From: Methylobacter marinus A45
Lineage (GTDB): Bacteria > Pseudomonadota > Gammaproteobacteria > Methylococcales > Methylomonadaceae
DNA: 64,000 nt
Direction: 5' to 3'
NCBI RefSeq assembly: GCF_000383855.1
Contig: NZ_KB912877.1
Span: forward strand, 3,328,282 to 3,392,281
Every line of letters starts with the position of its first letter. Positions within the stretch are counted from its first letter, which is position 1. Under the pieces are notes generated by a model. That model worked only from the letters and a program-made list of their open reading frames with translations. It did no database searches and was not told the origin of the DNA. Position numbers and translations under genes: made by a program. Below are positions 7,298 through 14,028 of the stretch, one piece after another.

Positions 7298-7360
7298 AAT
7301 TGTAGGTGCGAATTTATTTATGCCCTATGGGTACTTGTGCCCTTTAGGGTATTCGCACTC
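7298..7360. repeat. Left copy of ~45-bp direct repeat (aattgtaggtgcgaattNatttatgccctatgggtNNttgtgccc) with internal hairpin gtgcgaat/attcgcac
   Basis: Near-identical sequence recurs at 13986-14028; the two copies bracket the VgrG cargo island. The left copy extends into an imperfect palindrome. Confidence 0.7.
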
Positions 7361-7561
7361 TGAAAATTTTATTCGTCAGAACAAGGCTGACTGAGCACTA
7401 TGCTCCCTGGCGTTCCGTGACGGTGGCGGAGCAGGGAAGACGCAAAGTACGCTAAATCGGTTGCATTAACTTTTGGCAGCTTTTTAATATTTACCTCATT
7501 CAGAGAAAGGTATTGCCGATGCAAGGTGTATCGGACGCTTATGCCTGACGCTCAGTGTTGA

Positions 7562-9688
7562 ATGAACTTTAGTTCCAGGAAACAAAACATGGCAGTTACA
7601 CAAAAAAACCGCAAGATCCAGGTATTTACTGCATCGCTAGCCGAAGATACCCTGTTGTTTTACCAAATGCTCGGCCGGGAGGGATTGAGCGAGCCGTTCG
7701 AGTACCGTCTTGAACTGGTGAGCGAAGATCGGGCCATCGATCCCGACAATTTACTGGGTGAAATGATCACCACCCGGATACAGTTGGAAGACGGCAGTTG
7801 GCGTTACTTCAATGGCTATGTCAGCCGGTTTGGCCAATACGGCGATCTCAATGTCTTTGCCCGTTATCTGGTCACAGTCCGGCCATGGCTATGGTTTCTC
7901 ACCCGCACCTCCAACTGTCGGATATTCCAGAATCAATCCGTCCCCGACATCATCAAGCAGGTTTTTCATGAGCATGGTTTCAGCGACTTCAAGGAAAAGC
8001 TGAGCGGTAGTTATGCCAGCCGCGAATATTGTGTGCAGTACCGCGAGACGGACTTCAACTTTGTCAGTCGGTTGATGGAAGAAGAGGGGATTTACTATTA
8101 CTTCACCCATGAAAAAGACAAGCATTACCTGGTGTTAGCCGACTCCAGCAATGCCCACGACCCGTTTCCCGGCTATGAGAACATCCCCTATCATGTCGAA
8201 AGCGGCAAAACGGACCGTTCCCGCAAGGATCATATTCACGCCTGGGCATTTACGCACGAAGTCCAGCCGGGTGCCTATGAACTTACCGATTACGATTTCA
8301 AGAAGCCTAAAGCCAATCTGCGAGTCAAATCGGTGCTCAAGGAACCCCACGCCCGAGCCGAGTATGAATTCTTCGATTACCCCGGCCGCTATACCGAAAC
8401 CAGTGCCGGCGATAATTTTGTTCGCCTGCGCATCGAGGAACAGCATGCCCGTTTCGAACGTTGCGAGGGCAAATGCAATGCCCGTGGCCTGGCCGTCGGT
8501 TACCGGTTCAAGCTGCAGGAATGCCCGCGCAAGGACCAGAACCGTGAATACCTGGTGATTTCGGCTGATTACCATCTGCTGCTGGACGAATACGCTTCCG
8601 GTTCCAGTGTCGCCGGCGAAGAGAAACTCTTTGATTGCGGCTTTACCGTTCAGGATAACAAACGGCCTTTCCGCTCCCCGCGCGGCACGCCCAAGCCTTT
8701 TGTTCATGGCGCGCAGACCGCTGTAGTGGTGGGGCCCGCCGGCGAGGAAATCTATACCGACAAATATGGCCGGGTTAAAGTGCAGTTTCACTGGGACCGC
8801 TATGGCAAAGCCGATGAAAACAGCTCCTGCTGGGTGCGGGTTTCGCAGCCGTGGGCGGGGAAAAACTGGGGCATGATCGCTCTGCCTCGCATCGGCCAGG
8901 AAGTGCTCGTCGATTTTCTGGAAGGCGATCCCGACCAACCCATCATTAGCGGTCGGGTTTACAATGATGGCGCGATGCCGCCGTATAAACTGCCCGATAA
9001 TGCCCACATCAGCACGATCAAGACCAACTCCACCAAGGGCGGCGACGGATTCAACGAACTGCGCTTCGACGATAAAAAAGGCGAGGAGCAGGTATTTATC
9101 CATGCCGAGCGGAATCTGGATGTCCGCGTTAAAAACGATAGCCTGGAATGGGTCGGCAACGACCGGCATTCAATCGTTAAAAAAGACCTGATGGAACAAA
9201 TCGACGGTGATCGGCACTCAACGGTCAAGGGCGACAGCAACGCCGCGGTCACCGGCACCATTTCCATCAAGGCCGACCAGGACATGCAGGAAAAAGTGGG
9301 CATGAAGCACGCGCTCGATGCCGGCCAGGAAATCCATTTAAAAGCCGGCATGAACGTCGTCATCGAAGCCGGCATGAGCATTACCCTGAAAGCCGGCGGC
9401 GGCTTCATCGTCGTCGGGCCTTCGGGGGTGACGATCTCCGGTACGCCGGTGCTGATCAACAGCGGCGGGTCGGCCGGTTCAGGTTCAGGCAGTTCCCCGG
9501 ATGTGCCTAAATTGCCCAAGGAAGCGGACCAGGACAAAGCCGGTCAGGTCGACGACGTCAAAGCCGCCTCGCGGCCGCCCAAACCGGTCACTTACGGCCC
9601 CTCCGCCATGGTCTTGAAGACGGCGGCGCAAAATGGCGCCCCGTATTGCGAAAAGTGCGCAGCCGCTGCCAGCGCCAATAAATCCTGA
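7562..9688 (+). CDS. vgrG: Type VI secretion system tip/spike protein VgrG
   Basis: 708-aa ORF with canonical VgrG gp27/gp5-like blocks: FTVQDNKRPFRSPRGTPKPFVHGAQTAVVVGPAGEEIYTDKYGRVKVQFHWDR and SCWVRVSQPWAGKNWGMIALPRIGQEVLVDFLEGDPDQPIISGRVYN. The C-terminal beta-helix has repeated GxxVxIxA segments. An alternative start lies at 7589 (MAVTQ). Confidence 0.9.
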   Translation: MNFSSRKQNMAVTQKNRKIQVFTASLAEDTLLFYQMLGREGLSEPFEYRLELVSEDRAIDPDNLLGEMITTRIQLEDGSWRYFNGYVSRFGQYGDLNVFARYLVTVRPWLWFLTRTSNCRIFQNQSVPDIIKQVFHEHGFSDFKEKLSGSYASREYCVQYRETDFNFVSRLMEEEGIYYYFTHEKDKHYLVLADSSNAHDPFPGYENIPYHVESGKTDRSRKDHIHAWAFTHEVQPGAYELTDYDFKKPKANLRVKSVLKEPHARAEYEFFDYPGRYTETSAGDNFVRLRIEEQHARFERCEGKCNARGLAVGYRFKLQECPRKDQNREYLVISADYHLLLDEYASGSSVAGEEKLFDCGFTVQDNKRPFRSPRGTPKPFVHGAQTAVVVGPAGEEIYTDKYGRVKVQFHWDRYGKADENSSCWVRVSQPWAGKNWGMIALPRIGQEVLVDFLEGDPDQPIISGRVYNDGAMPPYKLPDNAHISTIKTNSTKGGDGFNELRFDDKKGEEQVFIHAERNLDVRVKNDSLEWVGNDRHSIVKKDLMEQIDGDRHSTVKGDSNAAVTGTISIKADQDMQEKVGMKHALDAGQEIHLKAGMNVVIEAGMSITLKAGGGFIVVGPSGVTISGTPVLINSGGSAGSGSGSSPDVPKLPKEADQDKAGQVDDVKAASRPPKPVTYGPSAMVLKTAAQNGAPYCEKCAAAASANKS

Positions 9689-9699
9689 GGTTTCCGGGC

Positions 9700-12575: not shown

Positions 12576-13154
12576 ATGGCTGAATTTGTTCTTGAAAATA
12601 TTAATTTTGATGTAATAGAACCTGGCGAACCCATCAACGAGAAGGATTTGTACGATCTTGAGGCAAAGTTAGGTACGCAACTTCCAGCACAATTGCGCAG
12701 TTATTATTTGCGCTGGAATGGTGGTTTGCCATGCCCAAGCAGCATACCGCTTAATAAATCAGCCTGGGTACGCTTGTATTGGAAACCAGGGTCTGAAGCG
12801 GCTCGAGTTGGACCGGCTGCGAGCCTTCAGGAGTTTGCTGAGATTAACTCTTCCCCTGATATGGACTTTTTGCGTATCTGGAATGATTACAAACACCGTA
12901 TTCCTCAAGATTGCCTGTGCTTTGCGTGTAATCCTGGGGACAGTCAGTTTTTAATTGGCATTAAGGACTATAACCTTGGCAAAATTTATTTCTGGCAGCG
13001 CGACTATCAAGCTGATATTGGCGCAGGTGAACTTCCCGGCTACGACAATATCGCCGATGTTGCCAATTCTTTTGTGGAGTTTCTGTTGGCGTTGCATGAA
13101 GAGCCGGACGAAGGTGAATCGCTAGAAGCCTGGGTGCGACGCGTTTATGGCTAA
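12576..13154 (+). CDS. SUKH/Smi1-Knr4-like immunity protein (paralog 2, tandem duplicate)
   Basis: 192-aa ORF collinear with 11942-12529 at high identity. It shares the LPAQLRSYYLRWNGG motif and the identical C-terminal block GAGELPGYDNIADVANSFVEFLLAL. Confidence 0.55.
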   Translation: MAEFVLENINFDVIEPGEPINEKDLYDLEAKLGTQLPAQLRSYYLRWNGGLPCPSSIPLNKSAWVRLYWKPGSEAARVGPAASLQEFAEINSSPDMDFLRIWNDYKHRIPQDCLCFACNPGDSQFLIGIKDYNLGKIYFWQRDYQADIGAGELPGYDNIADVANSFVEFLLALHEEPDEGESLEAWVRRVYG

Positions 13155-13947
13155 TAACCAGCGAGTTGCCTGGTTACCCCCTTATGATTTTTCTGCCGCC
13201 AAAACCACTTTCATTGATGCTTGGCCTAAAGCCTGGAGAGATTTGGCGCCAGGCTATGACATTGTTCCTGTTGATCGGATCGAAATGAATGCTCTTGGCG
13301 CCCAGATTATGGGCTTCAGGCATTGGTTCACGCCCGCCTCGACGCAGCCCTTGATCCATCTAGCCCATCGCCTTGATGCCGTTATCGCTAAACAAAACCG
13401 GGCCTGTTTTATCCGCTTAAGCTCACGCAGTCCTAAAGATTCTATATACGCCTTGCGCAACGGCCTGTGCATTCGTGATGGCGCACAAGCCTTGGCGATC
13501 ATCCTTGAAGGCTCTGAGCGCTGCGCCGCGGATCTGCGCATGGCGCTAGATTACCATCATCCGATGGCCATCATCGTGCGCAACTGGATTGATTTTCCAC
13601 CCTGGGCGGAATTTCGTTGTTTTATGGTGGGACGCTGCTGGGTAGGGGCCAGTCAGGCAAGGCACCTTGAGCGGATTGCCTATCCCCCGATAGCTGATTA
13701 CAAGTCAAAAATACTTGAGGTATTGAATGCGTCAATGAAAAAGATTGCTGCTGCATCACCAATCGATAATGCGGCGTTTGACCTGGTATTTGATAGCTTA
13801 CAAAAATCAAATCATGCCATTTTGCTGGATGCAAATCCGCTGCTTGTCAGCACTGACACAGCACTTTTTTCTTCGATAGCCGATTTAGACTCGACTTTTC
13901 GCTTTCGGAATTCTAAAGATAATTCCATACGTAAAATTTCATTCTGA
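13147..13947 (+). CDS. Cdc123/D123-like ATP-grasp family protein (candidate effector)
   Basis: Three motif blocks resemble, from memory, eukaryotic Cdc123: CFIRLSSRSPKDS (compare KLNWSAPRDA), PWAEFRCFMVG (compare PGAEFRCFVKE) and AFDLVFDSLQKSNHAILLDANPL (compare FVFDIYRDSRGKVWLIDFNPFG). Its start overlaps the stop of immunity paralog 2. Confidence 0.5.
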   Translation: MANNQRVAWLPPYDFSAAKTTFIDAWPKAWRDLAPGYDIVPVDRIEMNALGAQIMGFRHWFTPASTQPLIHLAHRLDAVIAKQNRACFIRLSSRSPKDSIYALRNGLCIRDGAQALAIILEGSERCAADLRMALDYHHPMAIIVRNWIDFPPWAEFRCFMVGRCWVGASQARHLERIAYPPIADYKSKILEVLNASMKKIAAASPIDNAAFDLVFDSLQKSNHAILLDANPLLVSTDTALFSSIADLDSTFRFRNSKDNSIRKISF

Positions 13948-13985
13948 TAAATTGCCATTAGTAATGGGCATGGAATAAATCAGGG

Positions 13986-14028
13986 AATTGTAGGTGCGAA
14001 TTCATTTATGCCCTATGGGTTTGTGCCC
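13986..14028. repeat. Right copy of the ~45-bp direct repeat bracketing the VgrG island
   Basis: aattgtaggtgcgaattcatttatgccctatgggtttgtgccc matches 7298-7342 with two mismatches. Confidence 0.7.

Follow-up and report, generated by a model that had tools for sequence, protein, structure and literature searches.

A VgrG–DUF4123–PAAR cassette of Methylobacter marinus A45 is very probably bracketed by independent copies of a dispersed REP-type repeat

Introduction

Auxiliary vgrG clusters of the type VI secretion system (T6SS) carry a DUF4123 (Tap-1/TEC) adaptor gene, as in the Aux clusters of Vibrio cholerae and the vgrG islands of Pseudomonas aeruginosa. We analysed such a cluster in Methylobacter marinus A45, within a 64,000-nt stretch of contig NZ_KB912877.1 (assembly GCF_000383855.1, positions 3,328,282 to 3,392,281, forward strand; hereafter the window, whose own numbering is used throughout). 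Here a co-directional 6.7-kb module, running from vgrG to a Cdc123-like gene, lies between two near-identical direct repeats. Genes for CDC123 ATP-grasp proteins have been described in T6SS polymorphic toxin loci together with SUKH immunity, VgrG and PAAR (Burroughs, Zhang and Aravind 2015, PMC4431377). For the repeats the relevant class is that of the GTAG-tagged repetitive extragenic palindromes (REPs) of Gammaproteobacteria (Di Nocera 2013, PMC3733652; Nunvar 2010, PMC2817692).

The initial annotation of this DNA had called the module an orphan VgrG cargo island and had offered three origins for its repeats: a target-site duplication, an attachment or recombination scar, or a REP-like element that mediates cassette exchange. 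We conclude that 7529-13947 is an auxiliary T6SS cassette and that the bracketing repeats are very probably independent copies of a dispersed Methylobacter REP, not the cassette's insertion scars.

Results

The flanking repeats and their fold

The 35-mer AATTGTAGGTGCGAATTNATTTATGCCCTATGGGT is found on the + strand at 7298-7332 and 13986-14020, the two copies differing at one position, and at just these two places in the window; dinucleotide-shuffled sequence gave zero 35-mer matches, and the chance expectation is none. The near-identical direct repeats reported on both sides of the 6.7-kb module are thus real. Beyond the 35-mer the right copy has a 2-nt deletion (GGGT--TTGTGCCC as compared with GGGTACTTGTGCCC in the left) rather than two substitutions, and in a gapped alignment 42/43 positions are identical, with similarity reaching 7342 on one side and 14028 on the other. 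Across the indel the repeat therefore spans 43–45 nt (7298-7342 left, 13986-14028 right), and the full 45-nt pattern of the initial annotation matches at the left copy only.

As had been proposed, the left copy extends into a hairpin, in which GTGCGAAT at 7306-7313 pairs with ATTCGCAC at 7351-7358 (DNA fold -12.9 kcal/mol, z = -5.8). In the right copy, which ends after TTGTGCCC, the 3′ stem arm is missing and the fold is no better than that of shuffles (z = -0.8). The two copies originally counted are both present, but a third, diverged and inverted, had been missed. The REP copies of the window are as follows.

7302..7358, + strand: intact REP copy (nhmmer 2e-19; fold z = -5.8)
13957..14028, + strand: truncated REP copy, consisting of a 29-nt 5′ extension (13957-13985) and then the REP head and first unit (13986-14028)
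3298..3334, - strand: third REP copy, diverged, inverted and one-unit, with stem GGGCGACT/AGTCGCCC

The left REP is built from a GTAG head (7302-7305), the stem (7306-7313/7351-7358) and two inner GCCC(N3-4)GGGT mini-hairpin units; its hairpin lies 130 nt past the stop codon of the upstream kinase gene. The right REP begins 10 nt past the stop codon of D123, the last gene of the cassette, and its 29-nt extension is shared with M. luteus copies (loci L003, L013 and L008, matching from 13957/13958) but not with the left copy. The third copy forms a chimera with a second REP family and sits in the loop of a hairpin repeat at about 3226-3391, whose sister without the REP insert is at 30210-30314. 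Together, the hairpin repeat and the nested copy form a mosaic resembling the bacterial interspersed mosaic elements (BIMEs). The window also contains at least two more palindromic repeat families with GTAG/GTGG heads, CCTGTGGGGGCGACTT..AGTCGCCCCCACAGG and ACAGTAGGGTACGCATCGCGTACC (3226-3391, 30210-30314, 39134-39201 and 55556-55642).

So strong a hairpin so soon after the kinase gene could have a local function, and the copies might be kept for it, with the left hairpin acting as a terminator, an insulator or an mRNA-stabilising 3′ structure between the kinase operon and vgrG; this would be compatible with independent REP copies. One survey (PMC3733652) reports that REPs are located mostly 3′ of coding sequences and function as RNA elements, and covariation in the stem (see below) shows that the fold is maintained. 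Yet the stem is not followed by a T-run and is not called as a terminator, promoter and terminator scans of both junctions having found nothing over shuffled background; Rfam at gathering thresholds returned zero families in the whole window; the right copy is unable to fold; and a sister lineage (L110, below) does without the left REP. We regard a local function as possible, but on balance unlikely.

A REP-type family dispersed in Methylobacter

When one genome from each prokaryotic species was scanned for exact matches to the 21-nt core GCGAMTTYATTTATGCCCTWT, 14 loci were recovered, of which 11 belong to Methylobacter; by our own calculation about two chance matches were expected over the scan. 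The Methylobacter loci are distributed among M. luteus IMV-B-3098 (5), Methylobacter sp. sgz302048 (4) and an uncultured Methylobacter (2), and at least one of the three loci outside the genus (L012) has a full copy of the element. Viral contigs scanned with the repeat core yielded one unrelated chance match only. None of the scan loci is syntenic with the window, the match being restricted to the ~60-nt element, and tblastn of all island and flank proteins against these loci found nothing: no REP locus encodes an island homologue. Every copy in the 11 loci of the three Methylobacter genomes, like the three copies of the window, is extragenic, with no open reading frame (ORF) of at least 100 aa spanning it, and the neighbouring genes are unrelated (CoA-disulfide reductase, HAD hydrolase, argininosuccinate lyase, DEAD-box helicase, subtilases, PPTase, LysR, and IS3 and IS5 transposases).

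The aligned copies define an element of 57-60 nt, GTAG-GTGCGAAT-TCATTTAT-GCCCTTTGGGT-ACTTGT-GCCCTTTGGGT-ATTCGCAC, with the family consensus GTAGGTGCGAATTCATTTAT-[GCCCTTTGGGT(ACTTGT)]1-3-ATTCGCAC. The inner 17-nt unit occurs twice in most copies, once in others (L005:1883-1917 and L013:2997-3030) and three times in one (L001:1600-1676). Among 12 full copies the unpaired head, directly followed by the 8-bp stem, reads GTAG in ten and GCAG in two. Over the same 12 copies 97% of the stem's cells are paired, as against 93% in shuffled stems (0/500 shuffles reach 97%) and 16-66% in slid controls. Compensatory stem changes go from UA to GC, two pairs being changed on both sides, and the third window copy supplies a further compensated position, AT to CG (GCGACT/AGTCGC).

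By the exact core there are 4-5 copies per 4.5-4.6-Mb genome, plus a few divergent neighbours. Because both of the independent REP copies that we found fail the exact core, the exact 21-mer undercounts the family, and the true copy number is probably tens per genome. The copies also cluster: a second one lies within 3 kb in 4/11 of the seeded 8-kb loci, and in M. luteus a direct REP pair 2.2 kb apart (L013:2997-5282) surrounds an IS3-family insertion sequence (IS; orfA/orfB) and a 120-aa ORF. Since nearby second copies are common, there is nothing remarkable in two REPs separated by 6.7 kb within a variable region. At another locus (L006) the REP adjoins an IS5-type transposase gene, and IS may target the element, or it may mark variable DNA. 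Other GTAG-/GTGG-headed palindromes, for example GGGTCGAATGAATTCGACCC and GGGGCGACTT..AGTCGCCCC, are frequently interspersed with the copies.

The element thus looks like a GTAG-headed REP-type family, genus-wide and of low-to-moderate rather than high copy number. Of the three original proposals, the REP-like element is the one that stands, as a dispersed, extragenic, GTAG-headed palindrome. The initial annotation had also named what would speak against a bond between repeat and island, namely a high-copy REP scattered through the genome with no preference for the island; the element is indeed dispersed and has no T6SS association, but its copy number does not look high.

The cassette without the repeats

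Nucleotide identity to the window is 97-99.6% in contigs of the same species (L015, L016 and L099-L102), and those that reach the junctions carry both repeats, identical to the window's (L101 reaches the left junction only and L102 neither). The decisive comparison is with the sister lineage L110 (94.6% nucleotide identity at the kinase 3′ end, 90.3% over 7427-13938), which also has the island directly after the same kinase gene, but without the following segment; past D123 its sequence is unrelated and contains no REP.

7171..7424, + strand: left-REP segment, 254 bp, present in the window and the same-species contigs but not in L110, with microhomology GTGACAGG / GTGACGG at its bounds

Cassettes at other loci likewise have no REP (nhmmer, E <= 10). 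In GCA_965188135.1 (L105+L109) the order vgrG-DUF4123-PAAR-140 aa-WHH-SUKH...SUKH-D123 is placed between a sensor-kinase locus and a cluster of fatty-acid (FA) hydroxylase...824 aa-DnaJ-GrpE-Hsp70 genes. In a second example (L108), which has lost most of vgrG and DUF4123, there are three SUKH genes, and a PIN/MazE pair comes next. The cassettes of Methylobacter sp. BlB1 and a relative (L103/L106) match ours at 82% in vgrG-DUF4123 and 85% in PAAR, but their cargo is of pesticin type, and in one further locus (L104) it is an M91 peptidase. Homology to the window starts at 7528-7575 and ends at 13943 at most, the conserved unit spanning 7529-13947; because it stops short of the REPs, both of these lie outside the conserved unit.

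In Methylobacter sp. BlB1 (L103:15661-18173) and in GCA_965188135.1 (L109:4943-10221) the cassette adjoins a homologue of window 44152-49465, a cluster encoding an 845-aa TPR protein, GrpE and Hsp70 that in the window lies 30 kb from the cassette. These placements imply that rearrangement within the genus has affected the cassette or its surroundings.

The REPs are thus separable from the cassette, since neither the L110 island, at the same left junction, nor the cassettes at other loci are accompanied by them. The same genes without flanking repeats, the second finding that the initial annotation had named as contrary to its proposal, are present at the same locus in L110 and at other loci in L105+L109 and L108. 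Alignment to related genomes, which it had suggested, does show cargo replaced among relatives, but the replacement occurs within the module, 3′ of DUF4123 and around PAAR, and not at the REPs, so the proposed role of the repeats in cassette exchange is not borne out. Base composition fits with cargo exchange because the cargo part has a GC content of 46-49%, whereas vgrG-DUF4123 is at 55-60%; the flanks are at 52-58%.

If the repeats were instead a target-site duplication, or the attL/attR sites of an integrative element such as a genomic island or transposon, one would point to their near identity and direct orientation at the ends of a co-directional block, and to the low GC of the cargo relative to the flanks. 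However, neither an integrase nor a transposase domain occurs in any of the eight island proteins, and tRNA and tmRNA genes are absent from the window; the repeats are inexact (the 2-nt indel and one mismatch) and one is truncated; the same sequence recurs at many unrelated loci in other species; and in L110 the island exists without them. Neither of the marks by which an integrative island would be recognised, a recombinase or tRNA gene and a repeat tied to the island, is found here. A target duplication of 43-45 nt also exceeds the normal range for transposons. We consider an origin as a target-site duplication or as an attachment or recombination scar extremely improbable and abandon both proposals.

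The REPs could still have had a part in bringing the cassette to its present site between the kinase and DoxX genes: REP copies would have recombined homologously, in a Campbell-type or double crossover, leaving the two direct copies as junctions. Both REPs do lie inside lineage-specific junction DNA, synteny with relatives ending at 7162-7164 and 14235, and the Hsp70-adjacent position of the homologous cassette in two other species implies that the cassette has changed place within the genus. The details of the junctions argue otherwise: in L110 the island occupies the same left junction although the 254 bp with the REP are missing there, and no REP follows D123, the right copy belongs to the sub-type with the 29-nt 5′ extension and the left does not, no cassette elsewhere has a REP, and the bounds of the conserved unit fall 170 bp inward of the left REP and 10 bp short of the right one. 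Relocation through REPs therefore seems improbable to us. We are also very doubtful of the fuller scenario, in which recombination between copies of this low-copy REP variant captured the vgrG cassette in the window's lineage and moved it from the Hsp70-adjacent position seen in other Methylobacter to the kinase-adjacent site; were it true, REPs would be drivers of T6SS cargo shuffling in methanotrophs.

Several points weigh against the explanation that we prefer, independent REP copies around an auxiliary T6SS cassette. The two flanking copies have in common a private variant of the first unit, CCCTATGGG, found in 0 of ~15 copies from other species, which also speaks for relocation. They share an AATTG lead-in as well, and are each other's closest relatives in a sample whose comparators are copies from other species. 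At the exact-core count, bracketing by chance would be unlikely under random placement, and our counter-argument leans on the observed clustering. An empty site, with the kinase gene adjoining DoxX, was sought among relatives of the flanks and none was found. No gene for a REP-associated tyrosine transposase (RAYT) was detected, tblastn for Y1/RAYT-like transposases over all fetched loci having returned nothing, so that membership in the REP class is by structure only. Finally, the effector, immunity and adaptor functions of the cassette are all inferred from domain families.

Under independent REP copies, these would have arrived or decayed independently of the cassette, in two intergenic junctions of a rearrangement-prone locus: the left REP would have remained intact in the kinase–vgrG spacer, and the right one, located just past D123, would have decayed to a 5′ fragment. 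As judged from sequence comparison, the REP pair does not define the cassette as a mobile unit.

Genes of the cassette

The gene order from vgrG to the Cdc123-like gene, as given in the initial annotation, is confirmed by Pfam and NCBIfam, and gene calls in the sister contigs back the start codons.

7589..9688, + strand: vgrG, T6SS spike with gp27-like, OB and gp5 C-terminal domains (PF05954, 1e-110; PF04717; PF22178; TIGR03361, 678 bits against a cutoff of 186)
9700..10242, + strand: DUF4123 adaptor/chaperone of Tap-1/TEC type (PF13503, 5e-31; weak Tla1-like match)
10299..10586, + strand: PAAR tip protein (PF05488, 5e-25; 95-aa gene calls in sister contigs)
10598..11020, + strand: 140-aa protein with no family match, always 5′ of the WHH toxin gene in related cassettes
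11024..11929, + strand: WHH effector of 301 aa with a C-terminal WHH / colicin-DNase (HNH/EndoVII) domain, TWHH motif intact
11942..12529 and 12576..13154, + strand: tandem SUKH-1 (SMI1/KNR4) putative immunity genes, a 631-634-bp tandem duplication
13147..13947, + strand: D123/Cdc123-family ATP-grasp (1e-16), last gene of the conserved cassette

The likely start of vgrG is the ATG at 7589 and not 7562, the orthologues being 699 aa long; an exact look-up of the VgrG sequence with either start codon found no record. The placement of DUF4123 directly 3′ of vgrG, together with PAAR, recurs in the same order in five related loci. The 140-aa protein had zero sequence matches in Pfam, NCBIfam, PADLOC or the PDB. 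We rejected the possibility that its ORF and that of the WHH protein are a single stop-split gene: the junction is an ordinary TAA-3 nt-ATG one, kept in three lineages. The closest solved relatives of the WHH nuclease are Rhs C-terminal toxins (8bd1, 2e-6), and the database contains few members of the D123 subfamily (37 matches at E <= 1e-10).

The two SUKH copies of the window are 81% identical to each other. Two SUKH genes are present in the window and L102, and one in L015, L016, L099 and L100. SUKH gene number is thus polymorphic (1, 2 or 3 tandem copies) and the order of the paralogues varies by lineage: the second SUKH of L110 is 97% identical to the first of the window, whereas between the first of L110 and the second of the window identity is only 69%.

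We found no core T6SS genes among the 38 other large ORFs of the window that were scanned (at least 90 aa, nearly all at least 150 aa), in agreement with the initial annotation, whose label of auxiliary effector cassette also suits the gene content. By its domains, the module reads as an effector with a toxin domain followed by putative cognate SUKH immunity genes. Going by these families, a VgrG trimer would form the spike and PAAR its cap; the DUF4123 adaptor would load the WHH (HNH-fold) DNase onto the spike, possibly with the involvement of the conserved 140-aa partner; a core T6SS encoded elsewhere would fire and deliver the effector; and the two SUKH proteins would shield the producer against the nuclease, with the D123 ATP-grasp as a presumed accessory protein.

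Neighbourhood of the cassette

The genes on either side of the cassette are the following.

3477-5501 and 5563-7167, + strand: caspase(C14)-Sel1 protein and Ser/Thr kinase, left flank, a pair conserved in Methylococcaceae
14241..14810, - strand: DoxX, right flank, last gene of an HvfA/HvfB/HvfC-type operon (to 16831) for a ribosomally synthesised and post-translationally modified peptide (RiPP)

In two relatives no more than 5 kb separates the caspase-Sel1/kinase pair from core T6SS genes, TssJ-Fha-TssK-TssL-TssM in one (L095, L097) and TssG-ClpV...TssBC in the other (L098), and it may be a T6SS-linked signalling pair. Because this upstream pair adjoins core T6SS genes in relatives, the island sits in what elsewhere in the genus is a T6SS neighbourhood, and the term orphan in the initial annotation is true for the window only. 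Relatives of the kinase region (L095-L098) diverge from the window at the kinase stop codon (7162-7164), running into an autotransporter or an RND pump; those of the DoxX region (L017-L026) diverge at the DoxX stop codon (14235), and one (L017) runs into an IS630-like gene.

The operon at 14241-16831 (- strand) is of the RiPP metallophore type and comprises a Cys-rich repeat precursor (16475-16831), MbnB/DUF692, DUF2063/HvfC and DoxX. Tandem 27-42-nt repeats at 16373-16645 correspond to the KCGE-like repeats of the precursor. Next to the precursor gene is one of two copies (16860-17362 and 54773-55275, 99.8% identical) of a 503-bp element with hairpins near both ends, an internally deleted, frame-broken IS200/IS605-type Y1 transposase gene that retains the N-terminal part MDYRYGSHTVYQIEYHFVWVTKYRYKV and the C-terminal part YWRRHFWARGYFCATVG. 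All four same-species contigs that span the site (L015, L016, L099 and L100) are without the 480-bp insertion at window 16872-17353, so this copy is a recent insertion.

Inverted repeats of ~165 bp at 33054-33216 / 39202-39365, 99-100% identical, surround a two-gene block encoding a Zn-ribbon protein (33330-33869) and a 1730-aa DUF3686/DUF7902/AAA+ protein (33882-39074), for which PADLOC gave weak LmuB-like matches only; the 33054-39365 block looks like an invertible or transposed module. A further pair of ~140-nt inverted repeats, 88-91% complementary and 13 kb apart (40067-40209 / 53408-53568), encloses genes for 1173-aa and 845-aa proteins, GrpE, Hsp70 and a P450.

Comparison with known systems

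The significance of the locus is mostly one of annotation: it is a Methylobacter example of the known VgrG–DUF4123–PAAR–WHH–SUKH–CDC123 toxin locus. It also documents a Methylobacter REP-type family with an unusual expandable inner unit, of which we found no previous description; the GTAG-REP survey of PMC3733652 names neither Methylobacter nor Methylococcaceae. For genome scanning in general, short repeats that flank an island should be checked against dispersed families before they are called insertion scars.

Like the GTAG-tagged REPs, the Methylobacter element is an imperfect palindrome preceded by an unpaired GTAG head, extragenic and dispersed; some of its copies form inverted pairs side by side, other REP families are intermixed with them, and IS are frequent neighbours. 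Unlike those REPs it is 57-60 nt long, outside the 20-40 nt of the class, and has the inner 17-nt unit in one, two or three copies; it also appears to be of low copy number, with 4-5 exact-core matches per genome as compared with the typical figure of more than 100.

In its gene order (vgrG, DUF4123, PAAR, effector, immunity), its co-directional and tightly spaced layout and its position away from core T6SS genes, the cassette is like the V. cholerae Aux and P. aeruginosa vgrG clusters, and as in those clusters the cargo is swapped among relatives 3′ of a conserved vgrG-DUF4123 pair. It differs in having PAAR and the 140-aa protein between the adaptor and the effector. Its architecture is already known from the CDC123 loci of Burroughs and colleagues (2015, PMC4431377), with which it has in common the association of D123 with SUKH, VgrG and PAAR; nothing material differs, and M. 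marinus A45 adds a Methylobacter example with a WHH nuclease.

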